Counted from the stretch's first letter, positions 2,622 to 60,216 are shown. The stretch: DNA of 64,000 nt from Candidatus Azotimanducaceae bacterium (GCA_965220235.1 CBDCPL010000001.1:70-64069), one strand, 5' to 3'. Numbers and translations are program-made. Notes: generated by a model from the letters alone, not told the origin.

Positions 2622-2847
2622 GCAAGCCGTGGAGTGGATGGTCGAGTTTGGTATTGACGACCAGGTATTCGAGCCATTTTTCATCAAGTATTCGGGTTCT
2701 GCTGAGCCGCCGAAGTCGAGGTTTCGCAAGCCAATTGTGCGCGAGTTGAAGTCATGCGGTTACGAGCATGACGTTGAAATTTGGTATCGAGTGACACAGC
2801 ATGGGTGTCACGGCGACATGCTCATTACGACAGAGGAATTGGCGTGA
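2590..2847 (+). CDS. hypothetical protein, paralogue of 2113..2379; start uncertain
   Basis: The C-terminal VEIWYRVTQHGCHGDMLITTEELA aligns with FDLWYRLTQRKMRGVMWFTGDELV. Confidence 0.5.
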   Translation: MLLTASEVSYEQAVEWMVEFGIDDQVFEPFFIKYSGSAEPPKSRFRKPIVRELKSCGYEHDVEIWYRVTQHGCHGDMLITTEELA

Positions 2848-3053
2848 GTCGCCGCCATCGTAAAGAGGTGGAAAAGAATGGATTGTGTCGAGATTGTCAA
2901 TCACCACGCGGGGACCGAAGGCCAACACATGGAAAGAGATGTGATAGATGTTGGTTTTACCACTTGCTGAGAAAACGAAAAGGGGAAGTGACTCCCGGCG
3001 GATATGTCAAACACGCCTCTGCCCAGTACAAAAAAGCATGGTATGAGGATTGA
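2844..3053 (+). CDS. small zinc-ribbon-like protein
   Basis: The GTG at 2844 overlaps the upstream TGA and follows GAGGA. The protein carries CRDC...CDRC cysteine pairs. Confidence 0.5.
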   Translation: MSRRHRKEVEKNGLCRDCQSPRGDRRPTHGKRCDRCWFYHLLRKRKGEVTPGGYVKHASAQYKKAWYED

Positions 3054-3057
3054 ATCA

Positions 3058-3603
3058 ATGGCTGGGAAAAGAAAGGATACAGATAAACCCTCTATAGCTA
3101 ACGACCCAAGATTAGAAAAGTGGCTATTTGATAATGTTTCAAAAAAAGATAGATTCCGGTATGGAATGGCGTACACACCCAAAGCAGTCACTCAATTCAT
3201 GGCGAGATCAACACTTAGTCAAGCGAGAAAGAACGGGTTGATTGAACGACTGAACGATGGTCGTGAGTACCTACCAGTCCTCGAACCGTTCGCCGGGATC
3301 GGAATCATGGTCGAAGACATGTCAGAGGTATTCGTGGAACAAGGTGTCCTACCATGTGTGGTTGCGTACGAGTTGAACGGGTTGGCAGCGAAAGAATGTC
3401 AAAGACGTAATCCTCACGCCTACGTGGTCAATACCGATACCTTCCAGACTCCAACGAACGTGATGGAGATGTGGGAGTCAGCATTTGTTGCTCACTTCAT
3501 CCTATCACACAATCATCCAGATTGGGACTTACCACGTCCACGATTCAAGGGACATTTTCACCCAGAAACTGAACATCAACAAGGAGACCCCATCATTGAG
3601 TAA
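3058..3603 (+). CDS. SAM-dependent (N6-adenine gamma-type-like) methyltransferase-like protein. No canonical NPPY motif, so it may be degenerate.
   Basis: YTPKAVTQFMA precedes motif I (VLEPFAGIGIM), a motif II-like VVAYELN and a motif III-like VVNTDTF. Only NHPDW sits where (N/D)PP(Y/F/W) is expected. The ATG at 3058 follows GAGGA. Confidence 0.45.
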   Translation: MAGKRKDTDKPSIANDPRLEKWLFDNVSKKDRFRYGMAYTPKAVTQFMARSTLSQARKNGLIERLNDGREYLPVLEPFAGIGIMVEDMSEVFVEQGVLPCVVAYELNGLAAKECQRRNPHAYVVNTDTFQTPTNVMEMWESAFVAHFILSHNHPDWDLPRPRFKGHFHPETEHQQGDPIIE

Positions 3604-3732
3604 ATCGAAAGAAAATCAACACGCAAAGAGGAAGCGTGAGAAGAAACGAGCAAACAAACAACAAAGATAAGGGAATTACATGGTAACGCCGGTTGGCTAT
3701 GTAGCGGGGATGACATCAGGAGGATTTAAGCA

Positions 3733-4884
3733 GTGTTGACAGCGCCGTTCCCGTACTACGGTGGCAAAAGACGCTACGTCGAGACGGTCTGGACTCGATT
3801 CGGACATCCTAAGAGATACATAGAGCCCTTTTGTGGGTCTATGGCGATACTACTAGGATCTCCACACATAACATCATTCGAGATCGTATCTGACATCAAT
3901 GGATACATCTGTAATTTCTGGCGATCCATCATCCACGATCCCGAAAAAACCGCGTACTACGCTCAATACCCAACCATCCATGACGATCTCACATCCAGAC
4001 AATCAGTCCTCTACGACTGGAGAACCAAACATCGTGAGCGACTAATCGAGGATAACGACTTTTACGATGCAAAGATAGCAGGATGGTGGGTGTGGGGTAC
4101 ATCCAATTGGATCGGACCACTCTACGCAGAACCAAGGAACACATCGAACAAGTTTGATGACTCAAGACCATACGTGTCAATACGAGGTAGTGGTCAAGGT
4201 AGTCATGTGGAGCGAGAATCATTTTACGCAAAAAAACCACATGTTCACGTGTCTGGACATGGACAAGGGACACAAATTCAACGCAAGGAGTTTAGTACTA
4301 AACGACCACTGACACACCACATTGGAGTAGGTGTCCAACTCCAACACTCCGATCCAAAATCGGGCAGACCACACGCAAAATCATCTGGAGGTGGTCAAGG
4401 TGTCCAATTACAATCCACTAAGCGAGACCCTATTGACATACCAAGTTGGCAGTCTCGAGACATTTACGACTGGTTCGATGTCCTATCAAGACGACTAGCT
4501 AAAGTGGTCGTATTCAATCGTGAGTGGACATCTTTCATATCACCTACCGTCCTAGGTAATACCACGAAAGTCGAAAGTGATACAGCCCTATTCCTCGATC
4601 CACCCTATCGACAAGACAACGATAGATCGAGACTCTACAAATCAGATGACGATGGTCAATCACATGATGTAGCTATCGAGTCGTACAACTGGTCAGTAGA
4701 AAATGGAGACGACTACAAGATAGCGTACTGTTGTCATCAAGACGACTTCGAGATACCACCGGGTTGGACTAGTGAGATCATGTCGTTCGGTGGAGTGAGG
4801 AAACAAGATCGTAGATCCAAACAAGATATGATCATGTTCAGTCCTCGATGCACCCAGCCTGAACAAGACTCGCTGTTCGATTGA
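3733..4884 (+). CDS. Dam-family (D12-class) N6-adenine DNA methyltransferase with an internal tandem-repeat insertion
   Basis: FPYYGGKRRY...YIEPFCGSMAILLG is the Dam N-terminal/motif I pattern, and FLDPPY is motif IV. The GTG start follows AGGAGG. About 83 aa of GxGQG-type repeats lie between the motifs. Confidence 0.75.
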   Translation: MLTAPFPYYGGKRRYVETVWTRFGHPKRYIEPFCGSMAILLGSPHITSFEIVSDINGYICNFWRSIIHDPEKTAYYAQYPTIHDDLTSRQSVLYDWRTKHRERLIEDNDFYDAKIAGWWVWGTSNWIGPLYAEPRNTSNKFDDSRPYVSIRGSGQGSHVERESFYAKKPHVHVSGHGQGTQIQRKEFSTKRPLTHHIGVGVQLQHSDPKSGRPHAKSSGGGQGVQLQSTKRDPIDIPSWQSRDIYDWFDVLSRRLAKVVVFNREWTSFISPTVLGNTTKVESDTALFLDPPYRQDNDRSRLYKSDDDGQSHDVAIESYNWSVENGDDYKIAYCCHQDDFEIPPGWTSEIMSFGGVRKQDRRSKQDMIMFSPRCTQPEQDSLFD

Positions 4885-5329
4885 GAACTCGCATTTTGGT
4901 CGGCGATGCGCTCAAAACGCTCGCGCAAATACCTGACAGTTCGGTGCAGTGCGTGATTACTTCGCCGCCGTATTGGGGGCAGCGGACATACCAACTGACT
5001 GAGTGGATTGGCGGGGATCCGCAATGCGAGCATCTCGGTAAGCCGATGCGCGGAGAGAACGCTCCGCAGGCGTGGAATCGCCCGTCTCGCCTAGCTAATC
5101 CGAGACAACCCGTATGTCAGTTCTGCGGCGCGGTGGAAGAGGTGGTCGAAGGCGGTATCGGTATGAGACCATCTTTCGCTCTCATCCGCCTAGCGATGTA
5201 CTGGTGTTCGTGAATCGGGTAGCAATGGTCGAAGGTCGTTATGTTGCTGATGCAACATCTGCAACTTGCTATGCGTGGTTCGTATGGCGCGAAGGAGCGG
5301 CTGGCGCGCAGTTGCACTGGTTGGCTTAG
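4881..5329 (+). pseudogene. Remnant of a beta-class N4/N6 DNA methyltransferase (N-terminal fragment plus a frame-shifted tail)
   Basis: MRTRILVGDALKTLAQIPDSSVQCVITSPPYWGQ is a typical N-terminus with motif IV. That frame stops at 5213 with no SAM-binding FxGxG motif. A second frame (5114..5329) ends in YAWFVWREG. Confidence 0.4.
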
Positions 5330-5374
5330 AGGACGGCAGCCAAATCAAAATCTACATCAGAGCCATCATCCAGC

Positions 5375-6259
5375 GTGTCCGATAACACCAATTTAATTCT
5401 CGCCCGTCAATCCAAGTACGACGAGTTCTACACGCGGATGGTGGACATCGACAAGGAGGTGCCAGCGTATCAACGGTCGCTGCGCGGCAAACGAATTTAT
5501 TGCCCGTGCGACAATCCCCGAACAAGTAATTTCTTCAAGCATTTCGTCATCAATTTTCGACGTTATCAACTGCATTCAGTCGTGGCGAGTTGTTATTCAG
5601 GTGGAGGCAATGGGCGGTATGCGCGCTACGACCGTAGAGGCTTGATAGAGCGGTCACTCGAAGGCGATGGTGACTATCGCTCGGATGAGTGTAACAGTAT
5701 CCTCGCCGAGTCGGATGTGGTCGTCAGTAATCCACCGTTCTCTTTGGCGCGAGATTTTTTCACGTGGGTAGCCACTCATGACAAGTCTTATCTATTGATC
5801 GCGAATGTCAATCTACTTCAGACATCCGCCGTTTTCCCATCGGTGAAGGCGGGGAGATGTTGGACGGGGACGGGGAGAAGTGCAATTACATTCGAGTTCG
5901 ATGTACCTTGCGAGTACAGAAACAGCAGACTAGATGGCGGTACGTCGAGAGCGAAGTTGGACCATTTCGTGTGGCTCACGAACATGGATCACGGTAATCG
6001 TTTCATCGATCTGGAGTTGACCCGACGCTACGAGGACGGGCGCTATGACGACTACACGAATTACGATGCGATTGATGTGCCGCGTATCGCCGACATTCCA
6101 GTCGCTTACTGGGGCAAGATGGGCGTGCCTATTCATTTCTTTATTCACCATAACCCCCGGCAGTTTACGATCCACGATGTCATTTCGCCTCGATTGATTA
6201 GAGATGGTCGTGAGGTCAATATCTATTCGCGGGTCATCATCCAGCGAGTTCGACCCTAA
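5375..6259 (+). CDS. EcoRI-methylase-like adenine-specific DNA methyltransferase
   Basis: YDEFYT...KRIYCPCDNPRTSNFFKHF...GDGDYRSDE...DVVVSNPPFSL is the pattern I recognise for the EcoRI_methylase family. Confidence 0.7.
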   Translation: MSDNTNLILARQSKYDEFYTRMVDIDKEVPAYQRSLRGKRIYCPCDNPRTSNFFKHFVINFRRYQLHSVVASCYSGGGNGRYARYDRRGLIERSLEGDGDYRSDECNSILAESDVVVSNPPFSLARDFFTWVATHDKSYLLIANVNLLQTSAVFPSVKAGRCWTGTGRSAITFEFDVPCEYRNSRLDGGTSRAKLDHFVWLTNMDHGNRFIDLELTRRYEDGRYDDYTNYDAIDVPRIADIPVAYWGKMGVPIHFFIHHNPRQFTIHDVISPRLIRDGREVNIYSRVIIQRVRP

Positions 6260-6279
6260 AAATAAAGTTTTAAATTTGC

Positions 6280-6308
6280 TTGACAATTCACATATTTATA
6301 TATAAGAT
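6280..6308 (+). promoter_or_regulatory. Sigma70-type promoter TTGACA-17 nt-TAAGAT (cassette copy A)
   Basis: TTGACA lies at 6280-6285 and TAAGAT at 6303-6308, preceded by an A/T-rich UP-like tract. It is nearly identical to the copy at 8317-8345. Confidence 0.6.
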
Positions 6309-6344
6309 TAGCACCGTGCAATGGCACGAACGAAAGGAAAAACA

Positions 6345-6659
6345 ATGAGTGATAGAACTGAATCAAACCTACCTTCGGGAGTCGAGTGGCAAGAAGTTGA
6401 ATTGCTAAGAGGTAGCCCACTAGCCTGCAAACTGATGAGCATGAAAGAGGACATGGCGATCGCTGAAATCAGTTTGACTCGCCAAGACCGCTACGCTATC
6501 AGATTTATTGACCCGCATGCTGTGGGAGACAATCTGAGGTTTCAACGAAGCTATCGCACTTACTCAGACGCGAAAAGGTATGTCAATCATAAGGCTGCAA
6601 TCTACTTGGCTGATAAAGCAAACAGAGATGCCATCAAAAGATACTCGCCAAACTTCTGA
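6345..6659 (+). CDS. hypothetical protein
   Basis: The ATG at 6345 follows GAAAGGAAAAACA, the conserved leader. Confidence 0.6.
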   Translation: MSDRTESNLPSGVEWQEVELLRGSPLACKLMSMKEDMAIAEISLTRQDRYAIRFIDPHAVGDNLRFQRSYRTYSDAKRYVNHKAAIYLADKANRDAIKRYSPNF

Positions 6660-6681
6660 GTCTCAACCCTGCCCAAGCCTT

Positions 6682-6699
6682 AGCCCGCAACAGCGGGCT
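6682..6699 (+). promoter_or_regulatory. Conserved inter-ORF stem-loop (AGCCCGC-AACA-GCGGGCT), a possible weak terminator or processing site
   Basis: A perfect 7-bp stem followed by TTTGG. The counterpart at 8695-8713 carries compensatory changes. Confidence 0.4.
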
Positions 6700-6735
6700 T
6701 TGGCAGTGAAGCAACTGAACGCAAAAGGACAAACA

Positions 6736-6981
6736 ATGAGCAAATATCAAGTCAGATGGATCGAGAAAAACAGCCCCGAATACGAAAAGCCAATTTATGA
6801 ATGTCGGGCGAACGGGCGATATGTTGGCTTCTCGTATTGGTGTCCGCAGAATCAAAATGAGCGATTCTGCTGCGAATTGGACGGCAAAACGTATCGGTCT
6901 ATTTGGGGGGACACCTGCAAGATGGCGCACAGGCGGTGGCGCAAAGAAATTGTCCGCCTGCTAGAAGATGCCCCAGACTAG
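6736..6981 (+). CDS. hypothetical Cys-rich protein
   Basis: The ATG at 6736 follows AAAGGACAAACA, the conserved second leader. Confidence 0.6.
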   Translation: MSKYQVRWIEKNSPEYEKPIYECRANGRYVGFSYWCPQNQNERFCCELDGKTYRSIWGDTCKMAHRRWRKEIVRLLEDAPD

Positions 6982-7012
6982 TCGATGGATATTACCGATG
7001 GGAGAAACAGAT

Positions 7013-7198
7013 ATGAGTAAGTGGAAGCGACCTGATGAGGACTATCAGTTCCACGACAACTGGAACGAGACCATAGAGGACATCCGCGAAGTCAGTAACG
7101 AAAAACTAATTAAATGGGATCATGCTGTGTCTAATGTCGGCGACCATGAGAGTCGTGAGGTGTTGGATGAGGTCATGGAAGCGAGAGGCATCATCTAG
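7013..7198 (+). CDS. hypothetical small acidic protein
   Basis: The ATG at 7013 follows GGGAGAAACAGAT. The sequence is MSKWKRPDEDYQFHDNWNETIEDIREV... Confidence 0.5.
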   Translation: MSKWKRPDEDYQFHDNWNETIEDIREVSNEKLIKWDHAVSNVGDHESREVLDEVMEARGII

Positions 7199-8133: not shown

Positions 8134-8342
8134 GTAGGTGGGAGTTGTATGAGCCGAATTACGTCGACATGGATCCCTGGTGGGAGTTGTCGGTCGGCGG
8201 TCGGTGTCTCGGTTTGGTCACTTGCATCGGCGGTGCTTGGTATGCGTTCGCTGCAGGCAGACCGCTAGGTCGTTTTGAGTCGGCAGAGGAAGGTAGAAAT
8301 AAAGTTTTAAATTTGCTTGACAAATCACATATTTTTACATAA
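8130..8342 (+). CDS. hypothetical protein. The C-terminal ~17 aa are read through the promoter cassette.
   Basis: ATGA overlap with the upstream stop. The 3' end overlaps the repeated promoter element. Confidence 0.5.
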   Translation: MSRWELYEPNYVDMDPWWELSVGGRCLGLVTCIGGAWYAFAAGRPLGRFESAEEGRNKVLNLLDKSHIFT

Positions 8343-8345
8343 GAT
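8317..8345 (+). promoter_or_regulatory. Sigma70-type promoter TTGACA-17 nt-TAAGAT (cassette copy B)
   Basis: TTGACA lies at 8317-8322 and TAAGAT at 8340-8345. The flanks match copy A. Confidence 0.6.
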
Positions 8346-8383
8346 TAGCGGTGTGCAATGAGGCACGAACGAAAGGAAAAACA

Positions 8384-8677
8384 ATGAGTCACCAAGCAAC
8401 TGAAGCGCAACGAGAATGGTTGCAATCTCTTTACCGCGCCGCTGGACATCCAGCGAGCGTGGTCGATCAAATCGCAACGATGGAAATGACGCGAGAACAG
8501 GCGAGTGCGGCAAAGCAATGGAACTACATCTGCTCGCTCGCGAAAGACCATCTACCGGGCGCAACATGGGACAACGTCGATGTGGAAATTGAAAAGCGCT
8601 ACAACGTCTTATACACCACGCTAACGAAGCAGAAGGCGAGCGGACTGATAGACATCCTCAAAACGCAGGCTTGGTAA
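8384..8677 (+). CDS. hypothetical protein
   Basis: The ATG at 8384 follows the conserved leader GAAAGGAAAAACA. Confidence 0.6.
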   Translation: MSHQATEAQREWLQSLYRAAGHPASVVDQIATMEMTREQASAAKQWNYICSLAKDHLPGATWDNVDVEIEKRYNVLYTTLTKQKASGLIDILKTQAW

Positions 8678-56839: not shown

Positions 56840-57742
56840 ATGCCTAACGCCGCGCTCATCGCTGGAAAGCAAACGGTCATACAAGGACTCGAAGGCGGGT
56901 ACGATGCGTTCTCCGATACCAGCCACCGGTTGCAGACCCGTACCGGCACCGCTCCGCTCGAATCTGGAGCGCAAATCACCGACCATGCCGTTGCACAACC
57001 AATCGAACTCACGCTCTCTGGTGTTGTCTCCGATCTAACAGTCAACGGGCAGGGGCGCGCCCGCGAAGCGTGGGGTACGATCCTCAAAAACTGGAAAGAG
57101 GTCGAGACCTTCTCCGTCGTCACGCCTTGGGTCGTCTATCCACAGATGATCATCCAAGAGCTGACCGCACCCGAATCAGGATTCGGATTCAATTTCACCC
57201 TCAAACTGGTCGAGATACAACTGGTCGGACAGGACGATGTAGTGCCGTCATTCCAGGCACTCGCACCTGCGATCAACCGACAGCCATTGCAACAGTTCGG
57301 TACGGTCGCCAATATCTCCCCCCTTAACTTCGATCTAGCACAGCAGGAGTTCAACGATTCGCCTCCGCTCAAAGCATCCAACAACCCGCTGGACTGGCTC
57401 AAGCGCACCAACGAAAAAGTGAATAACTTCATTGGCGCGCTCGCCGACAACGACTTGATCAACCGCGCCAGAGAGATCAACGATGTATTCGGGACGGGAA
57501 TACTCAGCAAAGTAACCGATATGAGCGGACTCAATTCGTTTTTAGAAGATCTCGACTCCGAAGTGGCTAGCGGAAACTACACGCGCATGCAGGCGGACGA
57601 GGCAATCGACCAGATCGGGCGGGCGAAAGACCTGATCACCGAGACCGTCAACGATCTCAATTCGCGGCGCAAACATGACTTGAATAACTTTGTGGACATC
57701 AACTACGATCCGAACGCCACTCCGTTCGCCGGCGTAGCCTAA
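56840..57742 (+). CDS. Structural-type protein with a Dit/tail-hub-like N-terminal domain (weak call)
   Basis: ITDHAVAQPIELTLSGVVSD...FSVVTPWVVYPQMIIQELT...FNFTLKLVEIQLV resembles N-terminal domains of tail hub/adaptor proteins. Confidence 0.3.
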   Translation: MPNAALIAGKQTVIQGLEGGYDAFSDTSHRLQTRTGTAPLESGAQITDHAVAQPIELTLSGVVSDLTVNGQGRAREAWGTILKNWKEVETFSVVTPWVVYPQMIIQELTAPESGFGFNFTLKLVEIQLVGQDDVVPSFQALAPAINRQPLQQFGTVANISPLNFDLAQQEFNDSPPLKASNNPLDWLKRTNEKVNNFIGALADNDLINRAREINDVFGTGILSKVTDMSGLNSFLEDLDSEVASGNYTRMQADEAIDQIGRAKDLITETVNDLNSRRKHDLNNFVDINYDPNATPFAGVA

Positions 57743-60216
57743 CGCTGAGACAGTCCCCTGCGAGCATCGTAGGAGAACGCCATGATCACCGCATCATAAA
57801 TATCAGGAGACGGCGGCTCCACCGAAGAGCCAGGTGCTTTCGGTTGTTTTTCAATCTTCACCTTGCCCGTGCGATCCGTCCATTCGGGTTGCGCCATCTC
57901 CGCCAACACCGACGATAAATTCGGCAATGCTGGGTTGATGAACAGGCAGTTATCGGGATCCACCGAAGTGTCGCCATTGTGAAGGCGTACCGTATTGTCC
58001 GCGCGCATGCGTACCGCCCATCCTGCTTGACTCGCCCAGTTCGCAAAATATTGCTTATTGGTCGCTGGCTTCGTGCCGCGCAGGAATGGTATGTCTGGCG
58101 ATTGAACCTCGCCACCGAAACGACAGCCATCGTAGTGAAACTTGTTGTTGCCTTCCACGATCCAGTCCCGTAACGGCCCGCGAATACCTGCTCCAGGCCC
58201 GCCCGCATCGTAATACAAACGAGTCACACCTTCTGCTGAGCAATAGGCAGCTGCCTTTCTCGCCGTCTCGGAGGTCGTGAACTTGATCGATCCTTTCCAG
58301 GTATCGACATAAAACAACTCCGGCCCGCTCCGCACAGCGAACGCATTGTTGTCGCTGCCCGTGTCTGCCACATCCAGACCCGCCATCGTGAACGCACCGC
58401 GCGTCGGTCGCTTGTCCCACGCCTCGACACAGATGCGGAGCATCTCGTAGGTCATTACCTTTTGGCGATCCGATGTATCGTCTGGTTCGCCTTCCCAAAT
58501 GTGCAGATAGCGATGCGGTTCGGTTTGCTCGCACAATCGACGTTCCAGATCGAGTTCTCTCGGAAACCATGGGTTAGCGTCCCAATTGACCTTCCGCACC
58601 TCCGCGTTCTCAATCTTCTGCATCACGAACGTCTGCCACGCCGTATCGGTACGATTCTTCGGGTTAAAGGTGATCCATATCTCACTGCCTGCGGCTCGGA
58701 TCGTCGGCGCTAGCAGCTCCCATGTCTGCCGTGAGAGCGTGTGTCCCTCCTCGACCCAGCAGATGTCGACGTCCTCCCAGCCCTTGATCGAGTCCCGCAT
58801 GCGCTCAAGACCTCGAAAGAAGAAGTGCGATCCGTTTTTGCCCTCTATCGTCGACGATCGGATCACGAAAAACGACTCCAAACCCATGCGATAGATCAAC
58901 TGCTTGATGGTTTGGAACGCAGACTCCTCCAGTGAGTTTTGAAACTCCCGCGTACAGGCGACACGGATCGGTCGTTCGGTCGCCATCAGGATCAGACTGG
59001 CACAGACCGAATAGGTGTTATGCGTAGCTATCATCGAACGTCCAGCAAGAAAGAGTCCATCTGGCGAATCAACGGTAATGCAAGTCATTTCCGCCTTTGA
59101 TCCCGTTCTCCTTACACCGTTGATCATTCGGGCCTTGATCCTGTTCTTTTGCTTCAGTTTAGGTCGTATGCGAACTCGCTTGCGGGGGATGCGGCAGCAC
59201 CGAATGTCAGGAAAGAACTCTACATGATAGGCAGTACCCACAACGCGACCGTAATATTTAGCTGGTGTATCACGAAACGAACATTTGATTCCCAACGAAA
59301 CAACCAGCTCATATATATCCTGCGCCAAACATTCTCTCGTACTCGTTATACCGGCGCTGCTTCCATCTTTATCAACTGTGCCATCCGTGTCCATTAGCCC
59401 CGCCAACAATGACCACCTCTGATTCTCGGACGCTCGAAGATACGACACCGGAATGTGTTTATTTTTTAGCAAATCCAACTGCTTCAGTCGGTAATGAAAA
59501 CTCTTGTCGTCTCCCTTTTTGCCGCGGGTGATAGGATACGATGGTGCTGAATCATTTGCGGAACAAGGTCTTGCCGGGTGCAACGTCTCTCCACCCGCCT
59601 CGAACATTGCCTTGAAGTGTGGATAGTCGATTTTGCTAACAGTCAACGCAGATTGACTGGAAACACCATCGCCAAGCCACGCCCCTAATACATACGGATC
59701 AATCAGAAGCGTAGCGTCTGGTGATTGAAGCGCTGGAGCGATAGGTATGGCGTACTCGTTGTCGCCTCGATAAACGTGCTTATATGTCTTACTTATCTCA
59801 TCCGTCGTTTTGATTTCCAAGTCCTCAAAACGATACCCGAACCCGCGCCGATTCATTCGTTTTCGGTAGAGTCGATTACACACCGCCCATAAATGATCTC
59901 CATCACAATAGATCGTTTCACCAAAAGAGAAATCCATCGCCCATTCGTCTTTGACTCCCTGCGGATGAACCGCTAGCACCTTGACAGGCTTGCCGTCTGA
60001 GCCATAGACCATATCGCCTGATCGCAGATCACCCATTGCAGTCCAACCGTTAGGCGTCGCAATACGGGTGTCGTTTCGTAACGCCTTCCCGCTACCACGT
60101 CCGCCATACAAGACCTTGAATCGCTTAGGTTGTCTGAGGAATTTCGCCCATGTGGGCAACTGGAAGTTGCTCTCTACTTCAGGCGCTCGGTCGAGAACCG
60201 CTAACTGACCTGACAC
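57739..60216 (-). CDS. terL: Terminase large subunit, interrupted by an intein in the Walker A loop
   Basis: GGRGSGK | intein | TYSVCASLIL. Downstream are REFQNSLEES, DICWVEEG (Walker B) and ITFNP. GTG start at 60216. Confidence 0.85.
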   Translation of the reverse strand: MSGQLAVLDRAPEVESNFQLPTWAKFLRQPKRFKVLYGGRGSGKALRNDTRIATPNGWTAMGDLRSGDMVYGSDGKPVKVLAVHPQGVKDEWAMDFSFGETIYCDGDHLWAVCNRLYRKRMNRRGFGYRFEDLEIKTTDEISKTYKHVYRGDNEYAIPIAPALQSPDATLLIDPYVLGAWLGDGVSSQSALTVSKIDYPHFKAMFEAGGETLHPARPCSANDSAPSYPITRGKKGDDKSFHYRLKQLDLLKNKHIPVSYLRASENQRWSLLAGLMDTDGTVDKDGSSAGITSTRECLAQDIYELVVSLGIKCSFRDTPAKYYGRVVGTAYHVEFFPDIRCCRIPRKRVRIRPKLKQKNRIKARMINGVRRTGSKAEMTCITVDSPDGLFLAGRSMIATHNTYSVCASLILMATERPIRVACTREFQNSLEESAFQTIKQLIYRMGLESFFVIRSSTIEGKNGSHFFFRGLERMRDSIKGWEDVDICWVEEGHTLSRQTWELLAPTIRAAGSEIWITFNPKNRTDTAWQTFVMQKIENAEVRKVNWDANPWFPRELDLERRLCEQTEPHRYLHIWEGEPDDTSDRQKVMTYEMLRICVEAWDKRPTRGAFTMAGLDVADTGSDNNAFAVRSGPELFYVDTWKGSIKFTTSETARKAAAYCSAEGVTRLYYDAGGPGAGIRGPLRDWIVEGNNKFHYDGCRFGGEVQSPDIPFLRGTKPATNKQYFANWASQAGWAVRMRADNTVRLHNGDTSVDPDNCLFINPALPNLSSVLAEMAQPEWTDRTGKVKIEKQPKAPGSSVEPPSPDIYDAVIMAFSYDARRGLSQR
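59017..60084 (-). mobile_element. Intein (356 aa, class-3-like, Ala1 ... THN/T+1) with a LAGLIDADG homing endonuclease domain
   Basis: Block A is ALRNDTRIATPNG. Block B (DGDHLW) has Trp at B:12. Block F (MTCITVD) has Cys at F:4. Block G is IATHN followed by Thr+1. The LAGLIDADG motifs are LGAWLGDG and LLAGLMDTDG. Confidence 0.75.

Follow-up and report, generated by a model that had tools for sequence, protein, structure and literature searches.

Positions 3058 to 6259 of a DNA stretch assembled under Candidatus Azotimanducaceae bacterium (GCA_965220235.1, CBDCPL010000001.1) carry four consecutive open reading frames (ORFs) of DNA-methyltransferase type on the plus strand. The window analysed here comprises 64,000 nucleotides, bases 70-64069 of a 64,160-bp contig with 53% guanine plus cytosine (GC) that is the genome of an uncultured tailed phage; positions are counted from the first base of the window. 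It is considered probable that the region is an anti-restriction island in which two intact enzymes are accompanied by inert debris at 4881-5385 and by an intact module built around half a methyltransferase. The island as such is ordinary anti-restriction biology, made of orphan phage methyltransferases and pseudogene debris. What appears to be new is the pairing of the short ORF at 3058-3603, here termed a half-methyltransferase, with a small zinc-ribbon gene, a pair whose function is putative. A preliminary description of the sequence had taken two of the four genes to be decayed. Its four ORFs and the motifs quoted for them are all found where it had placed them, and its suggestion of decay holds for 4881-5329, which is more eroded than had been thought, but not for 3058-3603, which is intact. 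The features of the region are as follows.

2781..3053, plus strand: gene for a basic four-cysteine zinc-ribbon protein (C-x2-C ... C-x2-C), directly upstream of the half-methyltransferase gene
3058..3603, plus strand: half-methyltransferase, 181 amino acids, with motifs X (GMAYTPK), I (LEPFAGIG), II (AYELN) and III (NTDTF) and no conserved motif IV
3733..4884, plus strand: D12/Dam-like (alpha-class) N6-adenine DNA methyltransferase, 383 amino acids (PF02086, TIGR00571 N-terminus, phrog_56)
4881..5177, plus strand: remnant 1, the first approximately 99 codons of a beta-class N6/N4 DNA methyltransferase (BLASTP to protein P0009, PF01555)
5153..5329, plus strand: remnant 2, the last approximately 58 codons and native stop of a PhiLM21_p027-type small N6-methyladenine (m6A) methyltransferase (BLASTP to protein P0012)
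5326..5385, plus strand: remnant 3, the last 19 codons and stop (LEDGSQIKIYIRAIIQRVR, then stop) of a second EcoRI-methylase-like gene, in the third frame (BLASTP)
5375..6259, plus strand: EcoRI-methylase-like (gamma-class) N6-adenine DNA methyltransferase, 294 amino acids (PF13651; YDEFYT, SNPPF)
6280..6308, plus strand: promoter-like site TTGACA-17-TAAGAT, from a consensus scan alone, the total count of such sites being not above that in shuffled sequence

The half-methyltransferase and its zinc-ribbon partner

The ORF at 3058-3603, which has a GAGGA 8 nucleotides ahead of its ATG, had been described as a decayed gamma-class gene that ends early. A search of 5.8 billion proteins yields five homologues of 163-188 amino acids on phage contigs, 56-63% identical to it, and both its length and the position of its stop are common to all five. 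The family alignment contains 47 invariant columns, mostly within LEPFAGIGIMVED (motif I), AYEL (motif II), AAKECQRR and YVVNTDTF (motif III). The ratio of non-synonymous to synonymous substitution rates (dN/dS) is 0.094 for the copies on contigs L008 and L011, the sole pair unsaturated at synonymous sites. The conserved length, the existence of homologues and the dN/dS value, which indicates purifying selection, all speak against decay. Instead, the ORF is predicted to be the half of a gamma-class enzyme that binds S-adenosylmethionine (SAM), free-standing and kept by selection. It proves to be a complete member of a small family, an outcome which the preliminary description had named as contrary to its own reading, with the difference that it had spoken of known families and this one is undescribed.

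The half-methyltransferase family is rare and undescribed, and neither Pfam nor the PDB nor the phage reference collection contains it. The window copy has no sequence match in Pfam, NCBIfam or the PDB and is missed by a PF02384 scan of the genome. PADLOC returned only weak matches, to the N-terminal ends of type II methyltransferases and DrmMI. Searched against the PDB, the family profile returned chance matches only. An exhaustive hidden Markov model search of 1.84 billion representatives brought up two borderline matches and no further family member. One match, to a Listeria-Bacteroides repeat protein, was spurious; the other was P0015, a PF02384/Eco57I-type fragment. The family and P0015 align over motifs X-III with 96.7% probability and an E value of 3.9e-10 (hhalign). 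Past motif III, P0015 continues into WDLVITNPPY, a continuation which the family lacks, the window ORF ending about 55 residues beyond motif III. Scans of viral and genome contigs revealed no further relatives, and a metagenome scan recovered only the contigs already known. Neither the ORF, the zinc-ribbon protein nor the remnants described below show similarity by tblastn to the chromosome binned with the phage, so there is no sequence-level evidence for a host origin or for mimicry of a host protein.

Two further candidates in the vicinity were rejected. The ORFs that follow the homologues are mutually unrelated and without NPPY, and thus do not supply a downstream split partner carrying motif IV. 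A basic mini-ORF of 24 codons at 3596-3670, overlapping the stop of the half-methyltransferase gene, was compared by tblastn with basic ORFs downstream of the homologues in L008 and L010, and the equivalence was unsupported.

The gene directly upstream encodes a protein with the pattern G-x-C-x-D-C-x-S-P-R...R-C-x2-C-W, which has no Pfam or PHROG match. Its homologues are 46-52% identical and share 19 invariant columns, including the four cysteines. A zinc-ribbon homologue lies within about 1.1 kb of every homologue of the half-methyltransferase, in four of four arrangements. It is adjacent and upstream in the window and in L011-13, about 220 nucleotides downstream in L003-5, and about 820 nucleotides upstream in L008-10, where the two are separated by a small ORF and the gene of a GIY-YIG endonuclease. 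A profile search found no copy of the zinc-ribbon gene elsewhere, and the pair is the only part of the early genes of the window that is common to the homologue loci. Together these arrangements suggest that the half-methyltransferase and the zinc-ribbon gene behave as a module, itself undescribed.

Two of the loci have features of their own. At 7453-8004 of L008, and likewise in L009 and L010, the GIY-YIG gene overlaps the start of the half-methyltransferase homologue by 4 nucleotides, and has the appearance of a homing-endonuclease gene that inserted itself into the module. On L003, a 51-kb phage contig, the pair occupies 6001-7018 among small ORFs, one of them weakly CsrA-like, between tail-fibre/baseplate-J genes and a wedge gene. 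Here it sits amid structural genes and not in an early replication arm. L003 and the present phage have distant baseplate and tail genes in common, at 37-46% identity.

According to the mechanism proposed, the family would have kept the SAM-binding half of the enzyme (motifs X and I-III) and lost the catalytic NPPY, so that the protein is expected to bind SAM without methylating adenine. It is possible, albeit tentatively so, that the half-methyltransferase and its zinc-ribbon partner form a non-catalytic early accessory or counter-defence factor, acting as a SAM binder or decoy. Rather more doubtful is the specific proposal that the pair has been repurposed for counter-defence, by sequestering SAM or serving as a decoy against type I/III restriction-modification (R-M), BREX or DISARM systems, with the zinc ribbon used for targeting. 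A literature search returned nothing specific on inactive or half methyltransferases as anti-defence proteins.

Several observations weigh against the pair being a selected, non-catalytic module. The prediction of SAM binding is drawn from the conserved motifs. The AlphaFold2 model, built from six sequences, shows a beta-alpha-beta-alpha-beta-alpha half Rossmann core with moderate confidence (mean predicted local distance difference test score, pLDDT, 66), and its best Foldseek match in the PDB has a non-significant E value of 0.096, the matches being to generic Rossmann dehydrogenases and uninformative. An invariant P-x-F-x-G-x-F at residues 161-167 falls in a C-terminal segment which the model leaves disordered (pLDDT about 30-57), and this motif could be a cryptic strand 4. 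Finally, both families are found on a handful of contigs, and common descent could explain part of their linkage.

Two alternative accounts of the half-methyltransferase gene may be set against these predictions. In favour of a recently truncated gamma-class pseudogene in the course of decay, the gene retains motifs X and I-III without a canonical motif IV, closes approximately 25 residues past an NHPDW sequence and matches nothing in Pfam. Yet the five homologues, in differing genomic contexts, stop at the same place under the constraint described above, and NHPDW is private to the window copy, the homologues carrying HTY-GV, HEYPNA or similar at that position, so it is no eroded NPPY passed down within the family. 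Recent truncation is therefore very unlikely. The other account, in which the ORF and the zinc-ribbon protein together constitute an active two-subunit methyltransferase with DNA or another substrate, deserves somewhat more credit, since all of the SAM-contact motifs are invariant, the two genes are linked tightly and repeatedly, and the aromatic-rich C-terminal motif is invariant and otherwise without explanation. The catalytic or target-binding residues would then be contributed by the zinc-ribbon partner or by the P-x-F-x-G-x-F segment. No (D/N/S)PP(Y/F/W) motif occurs, however, in the homologues of the ORF, in the zinc-ribbon protein or in any downstream frame; the residues that follow motif III are too few for strands 4-7; and AlphaFold2 predicts, with confidence, a helix where strand 4 would be expected. 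This proposal is thus judged improbable, and a selected half-methyltransferase lacking catalysis remains the favoured reading of the gene.

Intact enzymes and remnants in the island

The ORF at 3733-4884 had been assigned to the Dam/D12 class, and the assignment stands. PF02086 scores 41.9 bits against a cut-off of 22 (34 bits, still above the cut-off, in the whole-genome scan), and both EPFCGS and DPPY are present. The gene begins with a GTG 9 nucleotides past an AGGAGG. Its motifs follow the alpha-class order, with EPFCGS (motif I) near residue 31 and DPPY (motif IV) at residues 289-292, separated by a middle region rich in glycine and glutamine, and the PF02086 match is confined to the first approximately 100 residues. 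Two annotated phage DNA adenine methylases span 100% of the ORF at 27-30% identity. The three-way alignment is collinear throughout, from EPFCGS and a YDAKIAGWW block through the Gly/Gln-rich middle to DPPY and a C-terminal SP-C block, and the middle region is therefore a trait of the subfamily and not damage. The product is predicted to be an intact orphan m6A methyltransferase.

Likewise, the EcoRI-methylase-like character of the ORF at 5375-6259 is borne out by PF13651 (256 bits, cut-off 26.4, E value 7.9e-76) and by its SNPPF motif. It is the sole PF13651 match in the whole assembly, and 11 phage records align with it over 80% or more of its length, with 32-37% identity. No endonuclease-like ORF lies beside it on either side or strand, its neighbours being the remnants upstream and, downstream, the promoter-like site followed by an ORF of 112 amino acids without a family match. 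Since an adjacent endonuclease is missing, the gene is not half of a type II R-M pair, and it too is predicted to be an intact orphan m6A methyltransferase. Its open frame extends 15 codons upstream, with no earlier start codon, to a TAG (5327-5377), and this TAG at 5327-5329 is the only stop between the small-enzyme remnant and the EcoRI-like gene, which share a frame.

Between these two genes, the stretch 4881-5385 would be debris without function, the outcome of two or more deletions or illegitimate recombinations whose order, unlike the anatomy itself, is a matter of inference. In this scheme, a beta-class gene was cut after approximately 99 codons and joined to a 58-codon p027-type end, and then to a 19-codon EcoRI-like end. 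Remnant 1 matches P0009 over residues 1-99 versus 3-104 (E value 3e-24, BLASTP), phrog_67 (6.9e-9) and, over their N-terminal parts, CcrM and PRK11524; Pfam gave no match for 4881-5213. It starts with a TTG that overlaps the Dam-like gene's stop codon. It contains SPPY, within a TSPPYWGQR that is invariant with its relatives, followed by a CxH...CxxC zinc-ribbon insert, and it ends at GIGMRPSF near base 5177, the frame staying open to a stop at 5213. Complete beta-class relatives have 290-479 amino acids and carry an FxGxG SAM motif at the far C-terminus, and neither FxGxG nor NPPF is found in any frame of the remnant stretch up to 5388. P0009, the nearest beta-class relative, is itself represented by two overlapping PF01555 ORFs (198 and 217 amino acids) in three metagenome contigs, for example at 1392-2607 of L015 and 3026-4241 of L016, which points to a frameshift that recurs or to an enzyme that is truly split.

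Remnant 2 matches residues 138-195 of the 195-residue P0012 with an E value of 4e-22 (BLASTP), ending exactly at the last residue of that protein. Over the matched part it is 69% identical to P0011 and 55% identical to P0012, both metagenomic members of the family. It also matches phrog_799 (5.3e-12) and, by tblastn, p027 of Sinorhizobium phage phiLM21 (about 46%) and methyltransferases of Rhizobium phages. It represents the last 30% of a gene and closes with the TAG at 5327-5329. The D-x-F-P-T-P motif, the SAM motif and NPPF/W/Y are all missing, and with some 70% of the gene gone, including its NPPF and SAM motifs, no activity is expected of it. The homologies of remnants 1 and 2 overlap by about 25 nucleotides, at 5153-5177, and their junction is placed there.

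Remnant 3 overlaps the GTG start of the intact EcoRI-like gene and matches the C-terminus of that gene's own product (IRDGREVNIYSRVIIQRVRP, then stop; residues 275-293 of 294) with an E value of 7e-7, 11 of 19 residues being identical and the two stops lying in register. The match is accompanied by a 38-nucleotide direct repeat, 5345-5382 versus 6216-6253, of 74% identity. The remnant is the end of another, diverged EcoRI-like gene whose stop overlapped the start of the survivor.

The debris had been described as a beta-class N-terminus with SPPY and no SAM-binding motif at 4881-5213, continued in another frame at 5114-5329. The first half of this description is upheld; the second is not, as the supposed continuation comes from another family of small methyltransferases. 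Used as a query, the read-through composite brought up proteins matching one piece or another but no intact protein of this architecture, and no complete small family into which 4881-5329 would fit was found. The suggestion of a split or non-canonical enzyme is unlikely, both pieces being without a SAM-binding motif.

The debris lies in a region of mosaic base composition. The stretch 3000-4880 had been noted as visibly A/T-rich; its GC content is 46.2%, compared with 53.0% on average for the contig (standard deviation 1.9), and is the lowest among 622 windows of 1.9 kb. By piece, the GC content is 46.2% for the half-methyltransferase ORF, 46.6% for the Dam-like gene, 59.0% for the beta-class fragment, 54.4% for the small-enzyme fragment and 51.1% for the EcoRI-like gene. 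Loci with relatives of the half-methyltransferase have approximately 44.5% GC, and the homologous ORFs within them 45-47%. The low GC of these relatives matches that of the window copy, and is consistent with a lateral origin of the low-GC block.

The region would lie at the far end of the phage's first early unit on the plus strand, and the island would combine an anti-restriction self-methylation block with one unrelated neighbouring module, that of the half-methyltransferase and the zinc ribbon. Orphan DNA methyltransferases, sometimes several in one phage, serve anti-restriction self-methylation. Here, the Dam-like and EcoRI-like enzymes would each methylate a different motif of the phage genome and so block cleavage by host restriction enzymes; judged by family membership, such two-motif self-protection is their most likely role. 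The earlier proposal of stacked orphan methyltransferases undergoing turnover accords with the two intact classes, the lack of an adjacent endonuclease, the three remnants within approximately 500 bp and the mosaic GC content.

Two alternatives bear on this part of the island. That 4881-5329 is a single intact gene split only by a frameshift of assembly or sequencing, or one yielding a functional enzyme by programmed frameshifting, might be suggested by the fact that both overlapping frames are open at 5114-5213 and that P0009 is likewise called as two ORFs. The two frames, however, belong to unrelated families and represent opposite ends of each; joined, they give approximately 150 amino acids with no SAM-binding motif and none of the NPPF of the second family, whereas complete relatives have 195-479 amino acids, and no database protein matches both parts. 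Repair of a frameshift could not bring back the 100-300 codons lost at each junction, so an assembly frameshift is no explanation, and the single-gene account is hardly credible. More serious, albeit still unlikely, is the view that the intact methyltransferases serve mainly in regulation, replication or packaging of the phage rather than in protection from restriction. Phage Dam-type methylation is also used for packaging or regulation, as in the packaging of phage P1, which counts against reading the island as purely anti-restrictive. The genes are in an early replication and recombination arm with ERF and YqaJ genes downstream, and PhiLM21_p027-type enzymes are reported to be encoded upstream of replication genes (PMC5537653). 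Against this view, the presence of two enzyme classes and of remnants from three more suggests that selection favours a wide range of motifs and fast turnover, as is typical of an arms race, and the binned host is rich in methyltransferase and R-M-type loci, which is counted as a selective pressure for self-methylation. Protection against restriction is accordingly preferred as the role of the two intact enzymes.

The phage, its putative host and related systems

The contig is read as a tailed-phage genome since its minus strand encodes a portal, a prohead protease, a major capsid protein, a large terminase with an intein, a tape measure protein and baseplate proteins, and its plus-strand arm carries small early genes and, behind them, those of the ERF and YqaJ recombinases. 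The terminase ORF (57739-60216, minus strand, 825 amino acids) contains LAGLIDADG_3 and Hom_end homing-endonuclease domains at residues approximately 265-324, before Terminase_3, an organisation that fits an intein-type insertion. Positions 2800-6700 gave no megablast match among 50,697 phage records, and a DNA search of 40 related genomes returned only the window's own repeat and no near match to the phage contig.

This repeat-bearing phage was assembled together with a separate 3.68-Mb chromosome of 51% GC. Residues 1-500 of the RpoB encoded there are 95-99% identical to those of metagenome-assembled genomes labelled Pseudomonadales or Gammaproteobacteria, and the putative host is therefore an uncultured gammaproteobacterium. 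The link between phage and host comes from binning and is putative, which tempers the argument from host restriction. Profile scans of the chromosome detect at least five PF01555, one PF02086 and three PF02384 methyltransferase loci. One PF01555 locus (G000:C1:2188670-2189464, minus strand, 172.8 bits) has an in-frame TAG within a 486-residue frame and may be a pseudogene or phase-variable.

At its downstream edge, the island adjoins a cassette of approximately 94 nucleotides which occurs at 6262-6351, beginning directly after the stop of the EcoRI-like gene, and again 2 kb downstream at approximately 8294-8389, with 91% identity. It includes TTGACA-17-TAAGAT and the ORF start (M)ARTKGKTMS. 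On the strength of the consensus, the site at 6280-6308 may close the transcription unit of the island, and an 11/12 match at 1398-1425 may open it.

The island offers a compact and clearly resolved example of the gain and loss of methyltransferases in a phage, with five families in 3.2 kb, two of them alive and three persisting as stubs, the junctions of which are located to a precision of about 25 bases. Of greater use is the finding that an apparently rotting gene, 3058-3603, belongs to a selected, length-conserved half-methyltransferase family with a fixed zinc-ribbon partner. Should it act as a SAM-binding anti-defence pseudoenzyme, it would represent a new class of counter-defence, derived from enzymes which both defences and phages use. 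Were the counter-defence reading to fail, the ORF would still be a clean candidate for a minimal SAM-binding domain.

A number of parallels can be drawn with known enzymes. The half-methyltransferase family shares motifs X, I, II and III with the gamma-class enzymes of PF02384 and PF07669, but is a free-standing protein of approximately 180 amino acids without motif IV, motifs V-VIII or a target-recognition domain. Beta-class N6/N4 enzymes (PF01555) with a zinc-ribbon insert after motif IV have the SPPYWGQR and CxH...CxxCGA also present in 4881-5177, although this remnant lacks everything past their IGlE block, the C-terminal FxGxG included. PhiLM21_p027, of 218 amino acids, is the first characterised member of its small family and was shown experimentally to be a GANTC-specific m6A enzyme (PMC5537653). 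Enzymes of this type have 179-218 amino acids and are GANTC-specific where tested (PMC5537653), whereas remnant 2 keeps only the last 58 residues. The Dam-like enzyme has its SAM motif, DPPY, Gly/Gln-rich middle and C-terminal block in common with the proteins of Caudoviricetes MW202476 and of Mycobacterium prophage prophiGD11-3 (gp26), a subfamily of PF02086/TIGR00571 from which it differs by its low identity of 27-30%. The M.EcoRI family (PF13651) shares YDEFYT and SNPPF with the enzyme at 5375-6259, which is shorter than the 345-position profile and leaves positions of about 72-117 unmatched; in Helicobacter phage Pt11509_1 an EcoRI-type endonuclease partner is present, in contrast to the situation here. 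Unlike other phage orphan methyltransferases, those of this phage are flanked by and interleaved with three truncated remnants. Like them, however, they comprise intact enzymes (here of two classes) whose genes lie in a tailed phage's early region and have no cognate endonuclease.

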